Below are positions 7,243 through 61,338 of a stretch of DNA of 64,000 nucleotides, piece by piece; positions within the stretch are counted from its first letter, which is position 1; every line of letters begins with the position of its first letter. The position numbers and the translations under genes were made by a program. This DNA is from Candidatus Moraniibacteriota bacterium (lineage in GTDB: Bacteria > Patescibacteriota > Minisyncoccia > Moranbacterales > UBA11712): positions 607-64,606 of the forward strand of contig JAZDKQ010000023.1 of NCBI GenBank assembly GCA_043802865.1, given 5' to 3'. Below the pieces are notes generated by a model, which ran no database searches, had not been told where the DNA came from, and saw only the letters and a list, made by a program, of their open reading frames with translations.

Positions 7243-7524
7243 CTATTTTCCTGATATTGAATACTTGAAAGAATTAAGCAGCTCCATTTTTTCAGATTTC
7301 TTCAGCTTTTTGATCCGGGCTTCTTCTTTCGAGGCCGAAGACCGATTTTTGAACTTTCGCGAATATATCAGCTTGACCGGCCGGCGAGTCGAAGTATATT
7401 TCGCGCCCAGTTTCGCGCTGCCGTGCTCAGCGATCCTTCGCGTGAGGTTGGTGGTGATCCCAGTATACAAAGTTTTGTCTGCACATTCAAGGATGTAGAG
7501 ATCATACATTTTTTTGAGATGCAT
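7243..7524 (-). CDS. GIY-YIG nuclease-family small protein (UPF0213/YhbQ-like)
   Basis: YDLYILECADKTLYTGITTNLTRRIAEH matches the GIY-YIG core. About 90 aa. Confidence 0.6.
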   Translation of the reverse strand: MHLKKMYDLYILECADKTLYTGITTNLTRRIAEHGSAKLGAKYTSTRRPVKLIYSRKFKNRSSASKEEARIKKLKKSEKMELLNSFKYSISGK

Positions 7525-23607: not shown

Positions 23608-23641
23608 CAGCCCGAGGCTGATCCGCCTTGGGCGGAAGACC
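23608..23641. repeat. family-A-like GC-rich palindromic element (intergenic, variant)
   Basis: CAGCCCGAGGCTGATCCGCCTTGGGCGGAAGACC. Same subtype as the insert at 43171. Confidence 0.6.
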
Positions 23642-25717: not shown

Positions 25718-27643
25718 ATGGTCATCGATCTCCTAAAATTGATTCTCACAATCCCCTTTCTCCTTGTTTTGCCGGGGTTCTTTTTCCAATTGGCTGTTTT
25801 CGGCATGAAAAGCAGAAAAATATCTTTTTTTGAAAAAGCGGTCTTGACCGTTCCATTCAGCCTGATTGCCGTCAACTTGATCATTTTGCTTCTGGACAAG
25901 TTGAATATTCTGCTGAAAGGCCCGGTGATCGTCGGGGCTGTGCTGATATTTTGTGCTGTGTGTTTCGCGGTTTTTCAATTTCGATTCGGAAAGAAAAAAA
26001 ACAAAGAGGATGGCGTGGAGCCTGAAAAAATATTTAATTTTTCCACTTGGCAGACGATTTTCATTCTTCTTGCAATCGTTCTGGCGATTTTCATCCGCAC
26101 AGCCTATCTCTCCGATACGATCGTCCCCTCTTCAACCGATCTGGGACATCATATGTATTGGTCCCAGATGATCATCAATTCTGGACATCTTCCCGAATAT
26201 GGAATGCCGGACTTCATCATCGGTGAACATATCGTTTTTTCCGCGGTGAATCTTGTGAGCGGGGCGGGATTGATGTCGGCGATGCCGGCGCTTCTCCTTT
26301 TTCTTTTCAACATCACAGGAATTTTCACCATCGCGATCCTGCTTGGTCGGATATTTGAAAACAAAAAGATCGTCGCTGTTTCTTTTTTCGTCGCCGGATC
26401 TTTGTACGCAATAAACGCGCCGCAAGGGCGATATGTGAGCGGCGGAGTCATTGGAAATATCATTGGCGATATGCTGATTCCCGTGGCGCTATATTTTCTC
26501 TATCGTGCTCTCACCGAAAAAGATCAAATTTTTGCCGGCCTATTCCTCTTTTCATTCGCGGGACTGCTTTATACCCATCATTTGAGTGCGTTTATTTTTA
26601 TTTTTTCAATTGTTGCTATCATAGCTCTGTATCTGATATTGAACTTCAGAAATATCTTCAAGATTGCCGGAGATTGGCTGAAAGTGTTTTTGAAGCCGTT
26701 TCCTCTCGCGATTTTGCTGCTGGTCGCCTTCTTTTTTCTGTTTGTTTTCACACCGTCATATTTCAATTCAGCTGCGGTGAGTCAAGCCACGGGTACGCCC
26801 ACGAAGATCACGCGAGTTGGCTTGAGTTTGAGTCAAATTGAGAGAGGCATCGGAAGCGCCCAATTGTTTTTGGCCGGACTCGGGTTTCTTTTGGTCCTTC
26901 TTGAACTGTTTAGAGAAAAAGAATGGTCCGCCCGAGGCGGATCTCAGCCAAAGGCTGACCAGCCTCTGGCCGGCGCCGAAAAATTTGGCGGAAAATATTC
27001 CGTCGCACTTAGCTGGATTTTGATCCTTTTTGTCATGACATGGAAGCCGGCACTTCTGGATGTGAATATTCCCAGCGACCGGATAAGTAATTATTTGTTT
27101 TTGCCGATCGCTCTTCTCTCCGCCTACGGCTTGGTGCGATATTTTGAAATTTTTGGCGCGGCAGCCTCCCGCTTCTCTTCGGCTGTTTTGCTTTTCACGC
27201 TCCTGTTTTTCGTCATCACGAACGGACTTTCGGACAGCGCGGACGCCTTCAAGACAAAAAACCAATTTCAGCAAGCGGTGCAAACTTTTCACTCGGCCGA
27301 GTATCTGGCGTCAACAGTGGACACAAACAAAGATATAATTTTGAAAGACCATGTGAACATATACGGAGATTCGTGGTACAAATTGTTTTTTATGAAAGAT
27401 TATAAATATCCCCTCTCTCGAGGAGTTCTCACGCGATATGTTGATCCGACAAAAACGCGCGAAACTTGTACGCGGGACATGATCTCTTTTCCGGAAAGCG
27501 ATACCGCGAAGGAATGTTTTGCCGATACGGGCGTGAACTACGTCGCCGTGAATTCCCAGATCGAAGGCAATAGTTTTGAAAAATACCCGGATTTCTCAAA
27601 AGTCTACGGCTCGGATTATATTTCTATTTTTAGAAGAGATTAA
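25718..27643 (+). CDS. large polytopic membrane protein (possible GT-C-type glycosyltransferase/polymerase)
   Basis: At least 12 predicted TM helices plus a C-terminal soluble domain. No firm motif. Carries a family-A element in-frame at 26928. Confidence 0.4.
   Translation: MVIDLLKLILTIPFLLVLPGFFFQLAVFGMKSRKISFFEKAVLTVPFSLIAVNLIILLLDKLNILLKGPVIVGAVLIFCAVCFAVFQFRFGKKKNKEDGVEPEKIFNFSTWQTIFILLAIVLAIFIRTAYLSDTIVPSSTDLGHHMYWSQMIINSGHLPEYGMPDFIIGEHIVFSAVNLVSGAGLMSAMPALLLFLFNITGIFTIAILLGRIFENKKIVAVSFFVAGSLYAINAPQGRYVSGGVIGNIIGDMLIPVALYFLYRALTEKDQIFAGLFLFSFAGLLYTHHLSAFIFIFSIVAIIALYLILNFRNIFKIAGDWLKVFLKPFPLAILLLVAFFFLFVFTPSYFNSAAVSQATGTPTKITRVGLSLSQIERGIGSAQLFLAGLGFLLVLLELFREKEWSARGGSQPKADQPLAGAEKFGGKYSVALSWILILFVMTWKPALLDVNIPSDRISNYLFLPIALLSAYGLVRYFEIFGAAASRFSSAVLLFTLLFFVITNGLSDSADAFKTKNQFQQAVQTFHSAEYLASTVDTNKDIILKDHVNIYGDSWYKLFFMKDYKYPLSRGVLTRYVDPTKTRETCTRDMISFPESDTAKECFADTGVNYVAVNSQIEGNSFEKYPDFSKVYGSDYISIFRRD
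26928..26978. repeat. family-A element (extended variant) in-frame in membrane protein gene
   Basis: TCCGCCCGAGGCGGATCTCAGCCAAAGGCTGACCAGCCTCTGGCCGGCGCC encodes SARGGSQPKADQPLAGA. Confidence 0.6.
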
Positions 27644-29153: not shown

Positions 29154-30625
29154 ACATTGAATCTCTATTCGCTCACAAAAAGAAATTTCAAACGGACAAA
29201 ATGAAAGTCCCGGCGATTTTGCATTGCTCGGACAATCTTTTGCCGAACGAAAAAACTCTCGCGCAGCTTGAAAATACCGCTTCGCAAGAACATGTTTTTC
29301 ACCACATTGCGGCGCTTTCGGATGTTCACGACAAAAAAGGCCGCAAAAATCCGACCGGGACAGTTGTCGCGAGCGAAAATTTTCTTTTGCCGCAGATCAA
29401 CGACACGGCGCCAAACTGCGGAATGCGGTTTTTGAAAACGAATCTAACAGACGCTGATTTGGCTCCGGAAAATATCAACAAATTATTCAACGCCCTTTTG
29501 AAGCCGGTTCCGACAAAAGCCTACGTCGGATCGAAAATTCCATATTCTCTTGTCGTGGATATATGCCGGCACGGACTTAAGCCGGTGACGGAATATTTCA
29601 AGACGCGAACAAAAAATGAGATCAAAAATACTTTCAAGGGCGGAAATTTTTTTTCCGCCGAAGGCGGATCCGCCTCTGGCGGAGACATACCCAGCAAACA
29701 AGATATCACTGACGCTATTCCCCAGTTGTTTTTGTGGATTGGAAAATTTCGTCTCGGAATTCTTGGAGCGGCAGGAAATCATTTTTTGGATCTCATGAAG
29801 ATATCCGAAATAAAAGATCCTGAAATGGCAGAAAAATTTGGGATCAAAAAAGGACAATATATTTTTATGATGCACACTGGATCAGGACTTTTGGGACAGT
29901 ATGCATCGTACCTGTATACTCCAAAGAAAAAAGAACATACAAGCCAGCGCATTGTGCTTGAACTTGGGAAACTGACATGGCGATCCGGAAAGAAAGATAC
30001 CTACAAGAAAATTGCGAAGAAAATCGCCGAGTATAAAGATAAAGACGAATTTTTCGCCTATGACGCGGAATCCCCCGAAGGAAAAATGTTTTTGACGGCG
30101 CATCAAGCAGCGGGCAATCAAGGATTTGCCAATCGCTGCATTCTCACTCACAATCTTGATCAGACAATTGAAAAAGTTTTGGGAAAAAATCCCGAGCTAG
30201 AACTCCTTTATGACGCGCCGCATATTTTTGTGAATCGCGAAAACCATTTTGGAAAGGATGTTTGGGTGCATCGCAACGGCGCTGTCCGGGCGATTGCCGG
30301 AGAACCCGTTTTCATTCCGTCTTCTATGTCAACTCCTGCCTATCTGGCTGTTGGCACTGATCAGAATGAATCAACATTTTTTTCTGCCGCTCACGGCACC
30401 GGACGACGAAAAAATCCCGAAAGCAACAAAGCCGGGACAAAGGACGAATTGTTCGCGAAAATGCAGCAGCGAAAAGTAAAATTGTTCAACGCCAAATCAA
30501 AAGGTGTGGTTTTTCAGGATTCAGGATATTATAAGGATGTTGAAGAAGTGATCGCCGGAATGGAAGAAAACAAAATCGTGAAACCGGTGGCGAAAATGGA
30601 ACCAATTGCCGTTTTAATGTACTAA
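29150..30625 (+). CDS. rtcB: RtcB-family RNA ligase (divergent), carrying an in-frame family-A element
   Basis: LSDVHDKKGRKNPTGTVVAS (compare MPDVHxGxG), APNCGMRF (compare DINCGVRL), HTGSGLLGQ, HRNGAVRA, PSSMSTPAYLAVGT, AAHGTGRR. Confidence 0.65.
   Translation: MNIESLFAHKKKFQTDKMKVPAILHCSDNLLPNEKTLAQLENTASQEHVFHHIAALSDVHDKKGRKNPTGTVVASENFLLPQINDTAPNCGMRFLKTNLTDADLAPENINKLFNALLKPVPTKAYVGSKIPYSLVVDICRHGLKPVTEYFKTRTKNEIKNTFKGGNFFSAEGGSASGGDIPSKQDITDAIPQLFLWIGKFRLGILGAAGNHFLDLMKISEIKDPEMAEKFGIKKGQYIFMMHTGSGLLGQYASYLYTPKKKEHTSQRIVLELGKLTWRSGKKDTYKKIAKKIAEYKDKDEFFAYDAESPEGKMFLTAHQAAGNQGFANRCILTHNLDQTIEKVLGKNPELELLYDAPHIFVNRENHFGKDVWVHRNGAVRAIAGEPVFIPSSMSTPAYLAVGTDQNESTFFSAAHGTGRRKNPESNKAGTKDELFAKMQQRKVKLFNAKSKGVVFQDSGYYKDVEEVIAGMEENKIVKPVAKMEPIAVLMY
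29653..29684. repeat. family-A element in-frame in rtcB
   Basis: TTCCGCCGAAGGCGGATCCGCCTCTGGCGGAG encodes SAEGGSASGGD. Confidence 0.7.
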
Positions 30626-35225: not shown

Positions 35226-35366
35226 ATCCTCCCCTCCTCAGTTTCCGCCAAAGGCGGATCTGCCCCTGGTTGAGAGGAGGGGGCAGGGGGAGGTGTTGCA
35301 AGAGCGCAGAAAACTCTCAACACCCCTCTGTCCTTCGGACATCTCCCCCCATCTAAGAGGAGAAGG
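35226..35366. repeat. family-B structured element, copy 1, with a nested family-A copy (35242-35268); supplies the priA SD
   Basis: Matches 47317-47430 except for the 27-nt insert TTTCCGCCAAAGGCGGATCTGCCCCTGGT. TIRs are ATCCTCCCCTCCTCA / TGAGGGGAGAAGGAT. The 3' end reads AGAGGAGAAGG 5 nt before the priA ATG. Confidence 0.8.
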
Positions 35367-42038: not shown

Positions 42039-42063
42039 AAAAAAGGCTTTTATAAGCCTTTTT
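42039..42063 (-). terminator. terminator (GGCTTTTATAAGCC core) downstream of 42095..42790
   Basis: AAAAAGGCTT-ttat-AAGCCTTTTT. Related hairpin GGCTTATAAAAGCC at 41121-41140. Confidence 0.5.
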
Positions 42064-42094
42064 GCTGGGATTGTGGGACGATGTTCGAACCTTT

Positions 42095-42790
42095 TTACTG
42101 GATTTTTGAGCTATTTAGTTCCTTTAACTTTTGATCCCACCATTTTTTTATAGTATCTGCATGAGTTTTCGGCCCAGCTTTACGGAAATACTCAAATTTC
42201 TCTTCGAACATTTTATGATGTTTTTTCAAATTCTCCTGACTTTTCAATGCCCATAAAGAATGTTTTAGCTCTGCATTTTCCTTTTTGGCTAGATATTCAG
42301 TCGGTAAATATCGGTTCGCCGATACGTCAAAATCGATTGGCTCTATTTGAAGATTATAATTTTTATCAAATATTTTTCTAGCCAACGCCTTTATTCGGTT
42401 CTCTCGGGTCTGTTCGCAAAAAATGAAAATATTTGCTTTTTTGATATTACTTTTACTTAAAATCTTTTTACTGTTAATTAAATTTTCAAGAGTTGATAGC
42501 GACTTGTTTTCTGAAATTAGAGTCCAATTCTTAGTGATTGATTTCAAAGATGGACTATCCTTGATCAATTTGGAAAAAAATTTGATCATCTCATCAGCCT
42601 CGGTTCTTTTATATGGTTTAAATCCGTCGGTATTTCCACCGCAAAAGATGATAATAGGTCTCGATATATCATTTTTTAGGACAGTACTATATATCTTATT
42701 GAAAACTATTTTCAAATAAAAATTATATTTTTCGTCTTTAAGGATATTCTTCGGCACTCCGTATCCGAAAACTATAAAAACATTGTTCAT
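42095..42790 (-). CDS. DUF218/YdcF-like protein (very AT-rich gene)
   Basis: IIIFCGGNTDG...EADEM pattern resembles DUF218. About 30% GC, clearly below the background. Confidence 0.4.
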   Translation of the reverse strand: MNNVFIVFGYGVPKNILKDEKYNFYLKIVFNKIYSTVLKNDISRPIIIFCGGNTDGFKPYKRTEADEMIKFFSKLIKDSPSLKSITKNWTLISENKSLSTLENLINSKKILSKSNIKKANIFIFCEQTRENRIKALARKIFDKNYNLQIEPIDFDVSANRYLPTEYLAKKENAELKHSLWALKSQENLKKHHKMFEEKFEYFRKAGPKTHADTIKKWWDQKLKELNSSKIQ

Positions 42791-42828: not shown

Positions 42829-42901
42829 GGCTGGGGTGCTAGGATTCGAACCTAGGATCATGGGACCAGAACCCATTGCCTTACCACTTGGCTACACCCC
42901 A
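42829..42901 (-). tRNA. tRNA-Gln (anticodon CUG)
   Basis: TGGGGTGTAGCCAAGTGGTAAGGCAATGGGTTCTGGTCCCATGATCCTAGGTTCGAATCCTAGCACCCCAG. U1-A72 and G73 as in bacterial tRNA-Gln; anticodon loop TTCTGGT. Confidence 0.85.
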
Positions 42902-43155
42902 ATGTTATTATATTTTTCTATAATATCTCTTTTTTCTCCCACCCCACTATAACTTTTCAAATATTTTTCCCTTAATCTGGCTTCGGGCATCGATGTATGC
43001 TGTTCTGTGTATATTAGGGCAAATGGTCTTCTTGAACGAGTAGATTTAACTTTGCCTGAATTGTGATTAGATAACCTTTTCCTGACATCAGCAGTAATGC
43101 CGACGTAACAATTATCGTCTTGTAGGCTTTTAAGAATATAGAGGTAATATTTCAT
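42892..43155 (-). CDS. GIY-YIG nuclease-family small protein; stop codon lies inside tRNA-Gln (positions 8-10)
   Basis: MKYYLYILKSLQDDNCYVGITADVRKRLSNHNSG...RPFALIY matches the GIY-YIG core. ATG at 43155; the track extension to 43221 reads through the tRNA fragment. Confidence 0.6.
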   Translation of the reverse strand: MKYYLYILKSLQDDNCYVGITADVRKRLSNHNSGKVKSTRSRRPFALIYTEQHTSMPEARLREKYLKSYSGVGEKRDIIEKYNNIGV

Positions 43156-43157
43156 TG

Positions 43158-43214
43158 TTTTACCACTTGCCTGCCCGCGGCTGAGCCTTGGGCGCGGCCA
43201 GGGGCTACACCCCA
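43158..43214 (-). repeat. duplicated 5' end of tRNA-Gln (positions 1 to about 20) interrupted by a 33-nt GC-rich family-A-like insert
   Basis: Minus strand reads TGGGGTGTAGCC-[CCTGGCCGCGCCCAAGGCTCAGCCGCGGGCAGG]-CAAGTGGTAA, immediately upstream of the GIY-YIG ATG. Confidence 0.7.
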
Positions 43215-43254
43215 ATAACATCCCAGATTCTATAATATTTTGGGAAAAATATCA

Positions 43255-43283
43255 AGAAAAAAGCCGGAAGTCGGCTTTTTTGA
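43255..43283 (-). terminator. terminator downstream of ftsX
   Basis: AAAAAAGCCG-acttc-CGGCTTTTTT on the minus strand. Confidence 0.55.
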
Positions 43284-43322
43284 AATCCCCCCTTATCCCC
43301 CATTAGAAAGGAAAAAATTTTT

Positions 43323-47316: not shown

Positions 47317-47430
47317 AATCCTCCCCTCCTCAACTGAGGAGGGGGCAGGGGGAGGTGTTGTGATAATGCAGAAAACTTATCAACACCCCTCTGTCCTTCG
47401 GACATCTCCCCTCATCTGAGGGGAGAAGGA
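47317..47430. repeat. family-B structured element, copy 2 (intergenic, directly upstream of 46253..47305)
   Basis: 114 nt: ATCCTCCCCTCCTCAACTGAGGAGGGGGCAGGGGGAGGTGTTG...CAACACCCCTCTGTCCTTCGGACATCTCCCCTCATCTGAGGGGAGAAGGAT. On the minus strand its end provides a GGAGG motif upstream of the PPIase ATG. Confidence 0.8.
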
Positions 47431-48006: not shown

Positions 48007-49881
48007 CTATTTTCGCAAAACCGCCAAAAAGGCGCTGCTCGGGATTTCAACCCGTCCGAGATTGGTCATCTTTTTCTTTCCTTTTTTCTGCTTTTCAAGC
48101 AATTTTCTCTTGCGGGTGATGTCCCCGCCATACAACTTGGCCGTCACGTCTTTTCGGAAGGCTTTGACTGATTCGCGAGCGAGGATTTTTCCGCCAACGG
48201 CTGCTTGAAGGGCAATCACGAAGTTTTGGCGCGGAATGACATCCTTCAACTTTTCCACGGTGGCTTTGCCATCCGAAAAAACTTTTTCTTCCGGAACTAT
48301 TCTTGAGAAAGCGTCAATCCTGTCGCCCCCAACAAGAATATCGAGTTTCACGAGCTTGTTCGGCCGGTACCCAAGAAACGCATAGTTCATCGAAGCATAT
48401 CCACTCGAAGCGCTTTTCAGCTGGTCATGCAAATTGATGATGACGTCCGTGAGAGGAGATTCAAAGGTGAGGATCAGTCTTTCCGCGTCTATATATTCCG
48501 TGTTCTTGTATTCCGCTCGCGTGCTCCGCATCAGATCCATAATCGAGCCGAGATATTTTGAAGGAGAAATGAGATCGAGTTTCACATAGGGCTCTTCAAT
48601 GGATTCAATGATCGAAGGATCCGGCATTTCAAGGGGAGAATATATTTTAATTTTTTTTACTTTTCCGCCCGAGGCGGATCCGCCTTTGGCGGATATTTCA
48701 TATACCACGCTTGGAGTGGTAATGACTGGGTCTATTTCAAATTCCCTTTTGAGTCTTTCCTGGACAATTTCTATATGAAGGAGTCCTAAAAATCCGCAGC
48801 GAAATCCCCGTCCTAGCGCCAGATTGGCTTCCGGTTCAAACGCGAACGCGGCATCGTTGAGTTTCAATTTTCCCAGCGCGTCTCGCATGAAGTTGTAATC
48901 GTCTCCTTCTTTCGGATAGAAACTGGCATAAACAACCGGCCGGATCTCTTTGTATCCGGGAAGCGCCTGCATTTCGCCTGGGTTTTTTTCCAAAACGATC
49001 GTATCGCCGACGCGGCAGTCTTCGACGGTTTTGAATCCGGTCGCGATGTATCCGATATCGCCCGCGGACAATTCATTTGTTTTTTCCAAATTCGGCTTGA
49101 AATGGCCGACTTCGATCACGGAACTTCCCTGCTTGGTCGCCATAGCGAGAATTTTTTCTTCGGCATGGATCTTTCCGTCGACAATTCGGACATAGGCGAG
49201 AACTCCTCTGTAGGTATCATATTTTGAATCAAAAATGAGAGCGCGAAGAGATTTTTCCTGTTTTCCTTTGGGAGAAGAAATTTTTTCGACGATCGTTTCA
49301 AGAATTTTTTCAACGCCTTCCCCTGTTTTCCCACTGGCCTCGAGAATTTCTTCTTCCTTGCAGCCGAGAAGATGAACGATTTCTTTTTTCGTTTTTTCTA
49401 TCTCGGCGTTCGGAAGATCTATTTTGTTGATCACGGGAATGATTTCCAGCCCCTGTTCGATGGCATAATAGAGATTGGCGACTGTCTGCGCTTGTACGCC
49501 TTTTGACGCGTCCACAAGCAAAACCGCGCCCTCCACAGCGGCCAGGGAGCGAGAAACTTCATATTGAAAGTCCACATGCCCGGGAGTGTCTATGAGATTC
49601 AAGATAAAAAAGTCCGGCTTTGAGGAATTGGAGGCGTCAGCCGACAAGGGAAAAGCCGGACTTTGATTTGAAATCCGAGGACTATAAATCATCCTTACGG
49701 GTTGTAATTTTATAGTAATGCCACGCTCGCGCTCAAGATCCATCGTGTCCAGAAGCTGTTCTTTCATCTTTCGATCTTCGACCGTATGCGTAATCTCAAG
49801 CATCCGATCGGCCAGAGTGGATTTCCCATGATCGATATGCGCGATTATACAAAAATTCCGGATGTTTTGCTGGTTATTCAT
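48007..49881 (-). CDS. lepA: elongation factor 4 (LepA) carrying two in-frame palindromic insertions
   Basis: IIAHIDHGKSTLADR, NLIDTPGHVDF, conserved C-terminal domain. Extra segments GGSASGG and SPRISNQSPAFPLSADASNSSKPD. Confidence 0.9.
   Translation of the reverse strand: MNNQQNIRNFCIIAHIDHGKSTLADRMLEITHTVEDRKMKEQLLDTMDLERERGITIKLQPVRMIYSPRISNQSPAFPLSADASNSSKPDFFILNLIDTPGHVDFQYEVSRSLAAVEGAVLLVDASKGVQAQTVANLYYAIEQGLEIIPVINKIDLPNAEIEKTKKEIVHLLGCKEEEILEASGKTGEGVEKILETIVEKISSPKGKQEKSLRALIFDSKYDTYRGVLAYVRIVDGKIHAEEKILAMATKQGSSVIEVGHFKPNLEKTNELSAGDIGYIATGFKTVEDCRVGDTIVLEKNPGEMQALPGYKEIRPVVYASFYPKEGDDYNFMRDALGKLKLNDAAFAFEPEANLALGRGFRCGFLGLLHIEIVQERLKREFEIDPVITTPSVVYEISAKGGSASGGKVKKIKIYSPLEMPDPSIIESIEEPYVKLDLISPSKYLGSIMDLMRSTRAEYKNTEYIDAERLILTFESPLTDVIINLHDQLKSASSGYASMNYAFLGYRPNKLVKLDILVGGDRIDAFSRIVPEEKVFSDGKATVEKLKDVIPRQNFVIALQAAVGGKILARESVKAFRKDVTAKLYGGDITRKRKLLEKQKKGKKKMTNLGRVEIPSSAFLAVLRK
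48664..48695. repeat. family-A element in-frame in lepA
   Basis: TTCCGCCCGAGGCGGATCCGCCTTTGGCGGAT encodes SAKGGSASGGK (minus-strand reading). Confidence 0.7.
49609..49664. repeat. family-D palindromic insertion in the lepA G-domain region
   Basis: AAAGTCCGGCTTT...31 nt...AAAGCCGGACTTT (13-bp inverted repeat). Coincides with about 18 extra residues before NLIDTPGHVDF. Confidence 0.55.
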
Positions 49882-54616: not shown

Positions 54617-55758
54617 CTTTTATATATTTCAAGCGTTTCTTTCGCCATTTTTTTCCAGCTGTATTTTTGAATTTGTTTTTTCCCGGCTTCAATCAATTTT
54701 TTTCGCAAATCATTGTCCGTCAAAACTTTTTCAATCACTTCGGAAGCTTCAGAAACACCTCGCGGATCAAAGAAAAGGGCGGCATTCCCCAATATTTCCG
54801 GCAGACAGGACGCATTGGAACTTGCGACTGGAATATTTCTTGCCATCGCTTCAAGCGGCGGGAGACCGAATCCCTCATAAAGCGAAGGAAAAACATACAG
54901 CCTTGCTTCGCGATATATTGTTGGCAGATGATCTTCATCTATATGGTCGGGAAAAACAACGTTTGAAACTTCATTGTCCGCCACGAATTTTTTCAGCCGT
55001 TTGTAAAAATAATCTTCCTTTCCCGCGAGAACCAAGCTCAAACCGGGATGCTTTTTGGCAACTCCCTTGAAAGCCGAAATGAGCCGTTCGAGATTTTTGT
55101 GCGGGTAGGCATTTCCGACATACAAAATGTACGGTCTCATTATACCATACTTTTTGAGAACAGTTTCCGAATTTTCCAGCAGTGGTTTTTCAATCGTGTC
55201 CACCCCCTCATAGGTGACGATAATTTTTTTCGAATCTATATCGAAATTTTCCAGTATATCTTTTTTCGTGTGCTCCGAAACGGCGATTATTTTTTCCGAT
55301 TTCTTGATGGCTCGGTTGATCACTCGATGATACGCTTTTTTCTTGAAAAAATATGCCGGAGCCGACAAAGTTGACGCCTTACGGGTGGAATATCGAAAAA
55401 GAATAAGGTCGTGAATCGTGACGATGAATTTTCCTTTGTATGAAACAGGAACATTGAAGTGGGGAAAATGGACAAGATCAAGTCCGCAGCTCGCAAAGAT
55501 TTTCGGCATTTGGATCTGTTCCCGCAGTGTGTACCAAGGGACATCCGCCAAAACTTTCGTGAAATGTTTGCTTTGAGGCTGGTATTCATCCCAATTTTCT
55601 TTTCGGAGAAATATAAAAAACTGGTAGGAATTGTCCCAGCCGGAGGCTGGTCCGTCTTGGGCGGAGATATTTTCCAGATTTTCTATCAGTTTTTGAGTAT
55701 ACCGCCCGAGTCCCTTTCCTATCGACCCGAAAAAGCGGGCATCGATTCCAATGCGCAT
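54607..55758 (-). CDS. family 4 glycosyltransferase
   Basis: MRIGIDARFF start and YEGFGLPPLEAMA motif. Confidence 0.7.
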   Translation of the reverse strand: MRIGIDARFFGSIGKGLGRYTQKLIENLENISAQDGPASGWDNSYQFFIFLRKENWDEYQPQSKHFTKVLADVPWYTLREQIQMPKIFASCGLDLVHFPHFNVPVSYKGKFIVTIHDLILFRYSTRKASTLSAPAYFFKKKAYHRVINRAIKKSEKIIAVSEHTKKDILENFDIDSKKIIVTYEGVDTIEKPLLENSETVLKKYGIMRPYILYVGNAYPHKNLERLISAFKGVAKKHPGLSLVLAGKEDYFYKRLKKFVADNEVSNVVFPDHIDEDHLPTIYREARLYVFPSLYEGFGLPPLEAMARNIPVASSNASCLPEILGNAALFFDPRGVSEASEVIEKVLTDNDLRKKLIEAGKKQIQKYSWKKMAKETLEIYKSCG

Positions 55759-60933: not shown

Positions 60934-61338
60934 GATTAGTCGGGGCCTATAAGCCGGATTCTGTATCCCGCCAAAGCGGGACGATAATCATTTATCTAGC
61001 CCAGACATTGCTGTCGGGGTCGAGCGTTTTCTCTATTTTAAAAAATAGAGTACAAACTTGCACCAAGCAGGGTTTACCAAATTCCAATTATTGCTAATTG
61101 GTTCCGACCGCAGCTGGATACTTTGCGCGAGCTCAATATCCAACACCAGTCGGCTTTTCACCTTTGTCCGCCGAAGAGGCGGATAGTATTGTCTCTGTGG
61201 CACTTTCCCTAAATATATTTTTCAATATACCCGATGGGGGTTACCCATTGCTCTTTTTGTCCCGCTAAGCGGGACAGGTGTCCGGACTTTCCTCCTCGCC
61301 CATAAAGGGTGAGGCGATTATCCAGCCCTGACTAACTT
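60934..61338 (-). ncRNA. rnpB: RNase P RNA (bacterial type)
   Basis: Minus strand contains GAGGAGGAAAGTCCGGACAC (P4 5' strand), AGGGAAAGTGCCACAGAGAC, ACAGAATCCGGCTTATAGG (P4 3' strand). P1 pairs TTAGTCAGGGC with GCCCCGACTAA. About 490-nt gap with no credible ORF. Confidence 0.85.

Follow-up and report, generated by a model that had tools for sequence, protein, structure and literature searches.

In fungal mitochondria, mobile endonuclease open reading frames (ORFs) such as those in Allomyces atp6 and in rps3 bring along a replacement for the end of the host gene, while the displaced end is left behind as a pseudogene. Free-standing GIY-YIG homing endonuclease genes are known as well, e.g. that of phage T4 SegB, which resides in a tRNA gene cluster (PMC2330249; PMC13096335). 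A survey of the GIY-YIG superfamily in 2006 described vertical inheritance and a probable role in repair for its Slx1-like prokaryotic branch; fusion to TrmH, a D-loop methyltransferase, was noted, and no link to tRNA genes was reported (PMC1564403). Here we describe a small GIY-YIG gene of the latter kind that is inserted at a tRNA-Gln(CUG) gene of a Candidatus Moraniibacteriota bacterium (contig JAZDKQ010000023.1; the whole stretch of 64,000 nucleotides analysed is referred to as the window). It is very likely that the locus represents a mobile insertion belonging to a family of tRNA-nested GIY-YIG genes. The complete reading, a selfish, homing-like cassette of ~320 bp in tRNA-Gln(CUG) and, beyond it, a widespread family of minimal tRNA-nested GIY-YIG genes, is given a probability of about 0.6.

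Similar to SegB, genes of this family are GIY-YIG genes located among or next to tRNA genes without an intron, occur sporadically, move together with flanking sequence and are amplified locally. Unlike SegB, the window cassette lies inside a chromosomal tRNA transcription unit and is flanked by a duplicated tRNA segment and a signature palindrome. With the fungal mitochondrial ORFs it shares the way in which insertion into an essential gene is rendered harmless, as an intact copy is rebuilt beside the ORF and the displaced fragment is left. It differs from them in that the host gene is a bacterial tRNA gene of which usually the 5' part is concerned, in that the displaced fragment (the relic) matches the local tRNA and is split by a conserved GC-rich palindrome, and in the GIY-YIG branch to which the nuclease belongs.

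On the minus strand of the window, the FtsX terminator, the tRNA promoter, a split copy of the tRNA-Gln 5' part, the GIY-YIG ORF and the intact tRNA-Gln(CUG) follow each other in this order:

43323, minus strand: stop codon of FtsX.
43257..43281, minus strand: intrinsic terminator of FtsX (terminator scan), the left border of the tRNA transcription unit.
43227..43255, minus strand: native tRNA-Gln promoter, TTGATA-17-TAGAAT (promoter scan, 10/12 matches).
43203..43216, minus strand: relic part A, leader AT plus tRNA-Gln positions 1-12, ATTGGGGTGTAGCC, an exact 14-mer duplicate of 42890-42903.
43170..43202, minus strand: GC-rich palindromic insert (pal) of the long Gln type, CCTGGCCGCGCCCAAGGCTCAGCCGCGGGCAGG, present as a single copy in the window.
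43153..43169, minus strand: relic part B, tRNA positions 12/13-29 with GG changed to AA at 23-24, CAAGTGGTAAAACAATG.
42892..43155, minus strand: GIY-YIG ORF of 87 aa, with its ATG at 43155 and its TAG at 42894-42892 (Pfam 7.7e-16).
42829..42901, minus strand: intact tRNA-Gln(CUG) (ARAGORN; Rfam tRNA, 65 bits).

An earlier note on this DNA, made from the letters alone, had placed a GIY-YIG ORF between the intact tRNA-Gln and a split duplicate of the tRNA 5' end, and had recognized that the TAG stop codon coincides with tRNA positions 8-10. This arrangement was confirmed by ARAGORN, Rfam, Pfam and shuffled sequences. The duplicate, which had been given as 20 nt, is longer and spans positions -2 to +29 with two mismatches, the GG to AA exchange at 23-24; it is split after position 12 and contains the ATG of the ORF, so that relic part B furnishes both the 5' untranslated region (UTR) and the start codon. 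Exactly two copies each were found in the 64 kb for ATTGGGGTGTAGCC (43203-43216, 42890-42903) and CAAGTGGTAARRCAATG (43153-43169, 42874-42890), neither of which had a match in 100 shuffles, and the start-to-start distance of the two repeat copies is 313 bp. The palindromic insert comprises 33 nt, or 34 nt if one ambiguous C is counted. Rfam scans of the window at the gathering threshold and of the relic at E<=10 returned just tRNAs and RNase P and no intron family, the tRNA itself is contiguous, and the RNA of the relic is predicted to fold no better than shuffled sequences (z = -1.0).

A longer ORF of 109 aa starting at 43221 was rejected as a spurious extension that reads through the relic and the insert. 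The automatic gene calls P0001, P0004, P0006 and P0014 and that of the window ORF (42892-43221) are all extended through tRNA fragments, palindromes or whole tRNAs, P0004 reading through the entire tRNA-Gln. Typical products of such calls are the N-terminal sequence MLLGCSPWPRPRLSRGQASGKT and the C-terminal sequence SPSGKAAVSG...

The 87-aa product matches the Pfam GIY-YIG family (PF01541) with 58.6 bits (cutoff 22.6, E 7.7e-16). Among 24 homologues, residues Y6, Y17, R27, H31, N32 and K67 are invariant and E63 is nearly so, and the two tyrosines, the arginine and the metal-binding glutamate that characterize the catalytic site of the superfamily are thus all present. The AlphaFold2 model (pLDDT 94) has the beta-beta-alpha-alpha-beta-alpha-alpha topology of the GIY-YIG fold. 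A profile search against the PDB ranked the UPF0213 structures 1zg2 (3e-16, 38% identity) and 1ywl (7e-14) first, followed by Slx1 (4e-5), and structural comparison of the model by Foldseek retrieved 1zg2, Slx1 (TM 0.65-0.67, rmsd ~2 Å) and the catalytic domain of I-TevI (0.55, E 0.23). The model for group I intron endonucleases, TIGR01453, scored 16.8 bits at a cutoff of 56; no family of NCBIfam was above its cutoff, and searches of defence-system and phage protein libraries gave no significant match. The protein is a stand-alone domain which has neither auxiliary domains nor an invariant asparagine after E63, as is characteristic of UPF0213/Slx1-like proteins, and cassette ORFs are under purifying selection, with a dN/dS of 0.08 to 0.21 (the pair L117/L125 was left out owing to a frame error). 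From the ranking of the PDB and Foldseek matches, the conserved residues and the dN/dS values, the protein is predicted to be a functional minimal nuclease domain of the Slx1/UPF0213 type without a DNA-binding module.

The earlier note had posed the question of whether the protein belongs to the UPF0213/YhbQ family or to the homing endonucleases. By sequence and fold it is UPF0213/Slx1-like and not an I-TevI-type homing endonuclease, although it resembles a mobile gene in its behaviour. Enzymes of the Seg/I-TevI type comprise at least 200 aa, carry a C-terminal DNA-binding domain and belong to the UvrC/homing-endonuclease branch, whereas the window protein consists of the 87-aa catalytic domain alone. 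What it does share with the Seg/I-TevI genes is a sporadic presence accompanied by degenerate copies, as seen in the empty sites, the scars and the 99%-identical occupied site described below. Conversely, the UPF0213/YhbQ/YazA proteins (1zg2, 1ywl; PMC1564403) are its best match in sequence and fold and likewise represent a minimal domain without a conserved C-terminal asparagine; they have been described as vertically inherited and repair-related, whereas the window subfamily is tRNA-nested, sporadic and recently transferred. YazA of Bacillus subtilis, which is 36% identical, looks like the ordinary UPF0213 kind.

A search with FtsX yielded 80 related metagenome loci, 71 of which had enough downstream sequence. 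In 67 of these 71 loci tRNA-Gln directly follows FtsX, and 65 of the 67 lack the GIY-YIG ORF, which is present only in L070 and in L014, the contig of L001. Plain synteny had at first been suggested by P0002 (82% identical) and P0003 (72%), both of which are located after FtsX in another sample, and was ruled out by this census; the two cases thus indicate that more diverged cassettes hold the same site elsewhere. The situation that the earlier note had named as speaking for synteny, a gene conserved in relatives without the repeats, is the reverse of what was found, and the tRNA-Gln loci without the ORF that it had proposed to look for exist in related genomes, where the tRNA immediately follows the same promoter.

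In the empty sites L003, L005, L015, L004, L006, L007 and L009 the same promoter and leader adjoin the tRNA. In the first three, whose FtsX is 85-93% identical to that of the window, promoter and leader (TATAGAATCGAGGGTGTTA or ...GTCC) abut tRNA position 1, and therefore the relic in the window is located at the original 5' end of the tRNA. The spacing between the promoter and relic part A equals that between the promoter and the tRNA 5' end in the empty sites, and the promoter in the window now precedes a displaced tRNA fragment. The equivalent of the FtsX terminator is present in the relatives as a hairpin with another sequence. Other loci bear scars: L002 (FtsX 95%) has retained tRNA positions 1-12, the 8 first nucleotides of the palindrome and ~26 nt encoding ..DKNYNNFGV*, followed by the intact tRNA, and L010 and L011 have retained ..NNIGV*. 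The whole structure is present in L001. Between the window and L001, the 3' part of FtsX is 87.4% identical, with 57 synonymous and 13 non-synonymous differences in 214 codons, whereas the ORF is 99.2% identical, with one synonymous and one non-synonymous difference in 88 codons (synonymous differences of ORF versus FtsX, Fisher p = 1e-8). The segment from promoter through relic to insert is 97% and the tRNA 98.6% identical. The GC content at third codon positions (GC3) of the GIY-YIG ORF is 0.32, as opposed to 0.62 for FtsX and 0.52 for FtsE. Empty sites, scars, the contrast in identity to L001 and GC3 together strongly indicate a foreign, sporadic cassette that some lineages have lost and that has recently been exchanged between lineages; the locus is an insertion and not conserved synteny. 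The vertical inheritance described for this branch (PMC1564403) does not apply to a gene that is present at 2 of 67 orthologous loci, has 99% identity next to 87% in its flank and a foreign GC3.

That the repeat arose by chance or represents an assembly artefact has a negligible probability. Chimeric joins at repeats are a general risk in metagenome assemblies, and nothing else points in this direction; the repeats are absent from 100 shuffles, and the same structure is found in an independent JGI contig (L001) as well as in ENA, Logan and NCBI assemblies, among them complete genomes of cultured strains. Thus, an artefact is excluded.

Foreign low-GC DNA bordered by direct repeats of part of a tRNA is also the classic signature of tRNA-targeting integrative elements, with which the cassette shares the position of foreign DNA at a tRNA gene that stays intact. 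The earlier note had accordingly offered an att-like junction beside a homing-type insertion, and the ORF might be leftover cargo of an integrase island or prophage at tRNA-Gln. The gene downstream of the tRNA, which is likewise variable and low in GC (DUF218 in the window, CYTH in L001), would be in line with this explanation. However, a recombinase is absent in and next to the cassette: between FtsX and the next terminator the only ORFs are the GIY-YIG gene and that of the DUF218 protein. In addition, att sites are repeats of the tRNA 3' end that bound an island at the kilobase scale, whereas here the repeat covers positions -2 to 29, i.e. the 5' part as usual in the family, the added DNA amounts to only ~320 bp, and a family-specific palindrome, which is foreign to att sites, divides the repeat. 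The same minimal architecture, a GIY-YIG ORF alone, recurs in more than 50 unrelated loci. An att-like origin is therefore highly improbable. The notion of an insertion holds, and a homing-type event fits it better than an att-like one, given the lack of an integrase, the size of ~320 bp and the near-identical copy in a diverged background. The position of the repeat at the 5' end, which had seemed unusual, is the usual form of the family, and 3' mirror forms also exist. The cassette further shares its phylum and its location in tRNA genes with the mobile tRNA introns of Patescibacteria; unlike group I tRNA introns, it contains no ribozyme (Rfam), leaves the tRNA uninterrupted and requires no splicing. 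GIY-YIG genes are not mentioned in a recent survey of tRNA introns in Patescibacteria.

The same arrangement at other tRNA genes, which the earlier note had suggested to look for, was identified. One genome per GTDB species was scanned with an alignment of nine sequences, and the best 80 of 498 confirmed loci were combined with L082, L083 and L086 into a set of 83. By their record titles, the best 80 loci belong to Patescibacteria, Bacteroidota, Ignavibacteriota, Chlorobiota, Elusimicrobia, Omnitrophota and Cloacimonadota; the homologous proteins have ~84 aa and are mostly from Patescibacteria. A co-oriented tRNA is located at the ORF stop in 58 of the 83 loci (tRNA start at -100 to +107 nt; binomial p = 1e-55 against an assumed background of 5%), mostly with an overlap of 9, 14 or 22 nt or with a start 2-8 nt beyond. 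The tRNAs concerned are those for Gln, Glu, Arg (ACG, CCU, UCU), Lys, Met, Cys, Pro, Val, Ser, Asn and Trp. Among these 58 loci, the window and L070, 54 have the tRNA 5' part duplicated in recognizable form ahead of the ORF; a GC-rich insert (15-66 nt, GC 0.62-0.93) splits 52 of these 54 copies. Many homologues end with ..NIGV* or ..NIGE*, encoded by ATT GGG GTG/GAA TAG, which is the 5' end of tRNA-Gln. L082, L083 and L086 display the same anatomy at tRNA-Gln(UUG) after dnaX and at tRNA-Pro. As a control, 155 tRNAs in loci that had not been selected for GIY-YIG were inspected, and an 11-mer 5' duplicate within 700 nt upstream occurred in the known cassette or relic cases only.

Variants of this anatomy include mirror forms (L147, L133, L078), in which the intact tRNA is followed by the ORF and then by a 3' relic with a palindrome in or beside the T-loop, and solo relics without an ORF, at tRNA-Thr in L017 and as second units in L083 and L119. 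Two relics have the following positions in their loci:

L017, 625-690: 5' fragment of tRNA-Thr with a nested palindrome, just upstream of the intact tRNA-Thr, in a locus fetched with FtsX.
L078, 4700-4790: 3' fragment of tRNA-Gln without an ORF, palindrome in the T-loop, ~200 nt downstream of the intact tRNA, likewise in a locus fetched with FtsX.

The cassettes also form arrays. Two identical units are arranged in tandem in L135, and in the complete genome of the cultured Bacteroidota strain Cyclobacterium xiamenense ac3 (L162, 2440-3830; NZ_CP159481.1) four near-identical intact ORFs in units of 337 nt precede tRNA-Arg(CCU), each relic containing two palindromes, after positions 9 and 26. 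In Algoriphagus halophilus SOCE003 (L159; NZ_CP146486.1) the ORF is located between two palindromes ~310 nt apart, upstream of tRNA-Arg(CCU). A further array, L131, was left out since homopolymer errors affect the long-read assembly from which its degenerate copies derive.

A sister GIY-YIG subfamily (..RRPFELRYYEAY..) was observed away from tRNAs in L136 (2460-2780), L157 (2460-2775), L166 (2470-2780) and also in L158 and L164. In L136 and L157 its ORF is bracketed by inverted repeats of ~22 nt, ACCTCCACACCAAACAACCTTA and ATCCCCACACCAACTTAGCTTA, while in L166 the flanking repeats are direct (AGGTGTGGGGG). The unit looks like a tiny element bounded by inverted repeats.

The palindrome is the best-conserved part of the cassette: that of the window is identical at 32 of 33 nt to those of L087, L095 and L109, whose ORFs have only 58-63% nucleotide identity to the window ORF with saturated synonymous sites (pS 0.69-0.98). 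This degree of sequence conservation argues that the palindrome is clearly under selection. In the tRNA-Gln clade the insert is CCTGGCCGGGCAGG or a longer CCTGGCC...AGCCGCGGGCAGG, located after tRNA position 12 and always in the orientation of the ORF except in L122, where it is inverted; the long forms matched in 920 kb of fetched loci end 10-32 nt before the ATG. All nine distinct long variants have unchanged termini, CCTGGCC and AGCCGCGGGCAGG, and the interior, which ranges from 0 to ~50 nt, varies yet keeps a small hairpin (GCGCC/GGCGC versus GAAGCC/GGCTTC). Other clades have palindromes of their own, such as CCTGCCTGCCGGCAGGCAGG, CCCGCCCG...CGGGCGGG and GCACCCGCC...GGCGGG. The type of palindrome tracks the protein cluster and not the identity of the tRNA, as L094 bears a Gln-type palindrome at tRNA-Glu and the CCTGCC type occurs at Arg, Lys, Met and Gln. 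On the tRNA map the palindromes are positioned at loops and helix junctions, namely 9/10, 12/13, 21-26, the anticodon loop and the T-loop; L070, L092 and L162 have either the palindrome or the ORF junction in the anticodon loop, and relics with two palindromes are found in L142, L143 and L162.

In 920 kb of fetched loci the palindrome type of the window occurs only beside GIY-YIG ORFs. The earlier note had pointed out a likeness to a repeat at 23608, a variant of a repeat family it called A, and this remark has some basis since both share CGCCCAAGGC and TCAGCC.CGGGC. With 32 of 33 nt identical, the insert resembles the cassette inserts of unrelated genomes far more, so that membership in the cassette explains it better. 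A stray copy of the dispersed double-hairpin repeat was accordingly rejected as the source of the palindrome, as the two have 13 invariant columns only in common, compared with near-identical inserts in the cassettes of other genomes. Short GC-rich palindromes are known from REP/RAYT systems, the ends of IS200/IS605 elements, Rickettsia palindromic elements and the GC clusters of yeast mitochondria. Like these, the cassette combines a small nuclease gene with short, imperfect GC-rich palindromes whose ends are conserved and whose interior varies, set in an AT-richer genome. Unlike them, it encodes a GIY-YIG nuclease and not an HUH/Y1 transposase, and its palindrome is single-copy in the window and tied to tRNA relics. 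Conserved inverted termini and a variable interior are features of REP-like elements and of miniature inverted-repeat elements; the many dispersed copies of such elements are not seen in the 64-kb window, which contains one copy with the termini of the palindrome.

The ancestral order was FtsX, terminator, promoter and tRNA-Gln, and the following course of events is proposed. From the anatomy of the locus, the ORF would be transcribed from the tRNA promoter as an ORF in the pre-tRNA leader, and since a promoter scan gave no convincing second promoter upstream of the intact tRNA, ORF and tRNA are most likely co-transcribed from 43255-43227. The relic would serve as 5' UTR and start codon of the ORF; in most relatives a D-arm-derived GGTAAGG or GGTAGGA is located 5-9 nt before the ATG, which in the window is mutated to GGTAAAA. 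Processing by RNase P at tRNA position 1 would sever the message from its stop codon, and, as the stop codon lies inside the tRNA, this cut would both couple and limit expression of the nuclease. The nuclease might introduce a break into an unoccupied tRNA gene, which would then be repaired from the occupied allele in a homing-like gene conversion; the insertion would be tolerated because the duplicated tRNA segment keeps an intact tRNA. We give such nuclease-driven, homing-like spread roughly even odds; it is consistent with the empty and the scarred sites, with the recent transfer and with the shift from Gln to Glu between similar D-arms. Arrays might arise by repeated self-insertion or by unequal crossing-over. 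The palindrome may be a functional cis-element which, in the reading that we favour, hides the relic from the nuclease and breaks up a direct repeat of 30-50 bp that would otherwise delete the ORF, or, alternatively, it may be the binding site of the nuclease itself; any such specific role is put forward tentatively. Neither L090/L091 nor the arrays discriminated between the palindrome (12/13) and the ORF junction (~29) as the point of insertion.

Several points weigh against this homing-like cassette. Co-transcription and the effect of RNase P are deduced from the anatomy of the locus, and cleavage activity at a target site is presumed. The 87-aa domain comes without the separate DNA-binding module used by sequence-specific GIY-YIG homing endonucleases. 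The tRNA of the window has the same sequence as that of empty-site relatives such as L003; since occupied and empty alleles are identical in their tRNA, a nuclease that reads tRNA-internal sequence alone would cut its own host copy. Furthermore, where the identity of the tRNA has changed (L094), relics still match the local tRNA, and simple carry-over of donor tRNA segments therefore fails. Possible vectors were not apparent, as no relatives were found in viral contigs and phage and plasmid records gave matches of at most 43% identity only, with no adjacent tRNA in the two phage loci checked. The fractions in the genome census, derived from the best 80 of 498 matches, may not hold for the family as a whole. 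Finally, cassette and flanks have diverged to about the same extent in L090/L091 and L082/L083. Thus, the cassette can persist vertically for a long time under purifying selection, which also fits a role that is beneficial to the host.

In the latter case, the gene would serve the cell in connection with the tRNA operon, for instance by processing pre-tRNA or other RNA or controlling its quality, by repairing DNA at highly transcribed tRNA genes, or in defence, and the tRNA fragment and the palindrome would be parts of a regulatory leader. Such a function would account for the strong purifying selection and the long vertical persistence in some lineages, for an ORF that always runs in the direction of the tRNA and is joined to its transcription unit, and for a relic and a palindrome that are conserved and do not decay freely; it would also agree with the treatment of prokaryotic Slx1-like proteins as vertically inherited repair factors and with the TrmH fusion (PMC1564403). 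A host-serving gene is nevertheless improbable in view of its presence in just 2 of 67 orthologous loci and the scars of its loss, of a near-identical cassette with foreign codon composition in a diverged background, of tandem arrays with up to four copies, and of the many tRNAs affected with no consistent identity; moreover, no defence-system model was matched significantly.

The most interesting alternative to homing-like spread is a structure-guided, transposon-like mechanism. Here, the palindrome would be the recognition element, and the Slx1-like nuclease would act on the palindrome and on cloverleaf junctions independently of homology; the unit cut or copied and pasted at a tRNA-gene junction would consist of palindrome, tRNA(k+1..m), ORF and tRNA(1..k). 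The arrays are repeats of exactly this unit, and the palindrome, the most conserved part, has the invariant termini and variable interior of a miniature inverted-repeat element, is positioned at loops and helix junctions of the tRNA map, is inverted in L122 and is present twice in the relics of L142, L143 and L162. Moreover, the closest solved folds include that of Slx1, a structure-specific nuclease, and in L136 and L157 the ORF of the sister subfamily lies within 22-nt inverted repeats without a tRNA. However, GIY-YIG enzymes are hydrolytic and strand-transfer chemistry is not known for them, and the palindrome is found at one end of the unit only. The relic segments on both sides of it match the local tRNA (L094), which is unexpected for a unit that is carried along, and the transfer between the window and L001 takes in the leader and the tRNA, as plain homologous recombination would. 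The placement at loops and junctions is common within clades and thus probably reflects only about ten independent events. On balance, we consider transposition of this kind improbable as well. Somewhat less so, but still unlikely, is the broader proposal of a so far unrecognized class of mobile element, whose Slx1-like nuclease would recognize structure, i.e. the cloverleaf junctions or loops of tRNA genes and its own palindrome.

The window contains a number of further features:

7243-7512 (longest ORF to 7533), minus strand: second GIY-YIG gene (Pfam 1.9e-16).
42095-42790, minus strand: low-GC ORF just downstream of tRNA-Gln with a weak match to DUF218 (GC 0.31, GC3 0.33).
26947-26978, 29653-29686, 48663-48694 and 55633-55666: GC-rich double-hairpin repeats, CCGCC-NGA-GGCGG-AT-CCGCC-TYTG-GCGG, within long ORFs.
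23608-23641: double-hairpin repeat, intergenic.
60934-61333: RNase P RNA gene (Rfam scan).

The second GIY-YIG gene had been listed in the earlier note as a paralogue at 7243..7524. It is a real gene (7243-7512), and belongs to another subfamily that does not share the arrangement: it is 38% identical to the tRNA-linked gene, its codon composition (GC3 0.54) is native, and its surroundings contain neither a tRNA nor a relic or palindrome. It probably is an ordinary gene of the UPF0213/YazA type. At the position of the DUF218 ORF, L001 carries a gene with a CYTH domain, while the terminator that follows (42060-42090) is common to both; thus, the 3' side of the tRNA is also variable and probably a slot for foreign genes.

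Where the double-hairpin repeats lie in ORFs they are read in frame as ..SAEGGSASGG.., ..SAKGGSASGG.., ..SAQDGPASGW.. and ..SARGGSQPKADQPLAG.., and they look like in-frame palindromic insertions of the kind known as RPE in Rickettsia. A hairpin of the double-hairpin type splits the tRNA-Glu relic in L165. A different short repeat, CTCCCTCTCC..GGAGAGGGCAGGGGTGAGG or GGAGGGGGCAGGGGG, is located at 43285-43322, 35260-35293 and 47323-47352, and also just after the FtsX stop codon in L001, L002, L004 and L005; it may be a separate, terminator-like repeat family.

In the literature, the coverage of which was incomplete so that absence is no proof, we found no description of small GIY-YIG genes that are nested at tRNA genes and accompanied by split relics. 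The principle has precedents in free-standing endonuclease genes whose host gene stays intact while a displaced piece of it remains; there is a real chance that the mechanism itself is new. Small stand-alone GIY-YIG proteins are a very common annotation in bacteria ("nuclease family protein"), have no established function and are regarded as vertically inherited repair factors. The empty, scarred and occupied relatives indicate that one large subfamily of them constitutes a mobile cassette around tRNA genes, with an anatomy of displaced tRNA fragment, signature palindrome and ORF followed by the intact tRNA. This accounts for recurrent annotation artefacts, such as ORFs running through tRNA fragments and overlaps between coding sequences and tRNAs. 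The cultured carriers C. xiamenense ac3, with its four tandem copies, and A. halophilus SOCE003 are possible experimental systems. If the nuclease is indeed guided by structure, it would show how a minimal nuclease gains target specificity, and a protein of 85 aa could invade tRNA genes of diverse identity across several phyla and restore the tRNA each time; the palindromes would then be cis-acting ends or immunity marks at cut sites, and the same machinery might seed dispersed GC-rich hairpin repeats, including those that are in frame in proteins. The cassette offers a testable explanation for the role of small GIY-YIG proteins and adds a class of tRNA-gene parasites beside introns and integrases.

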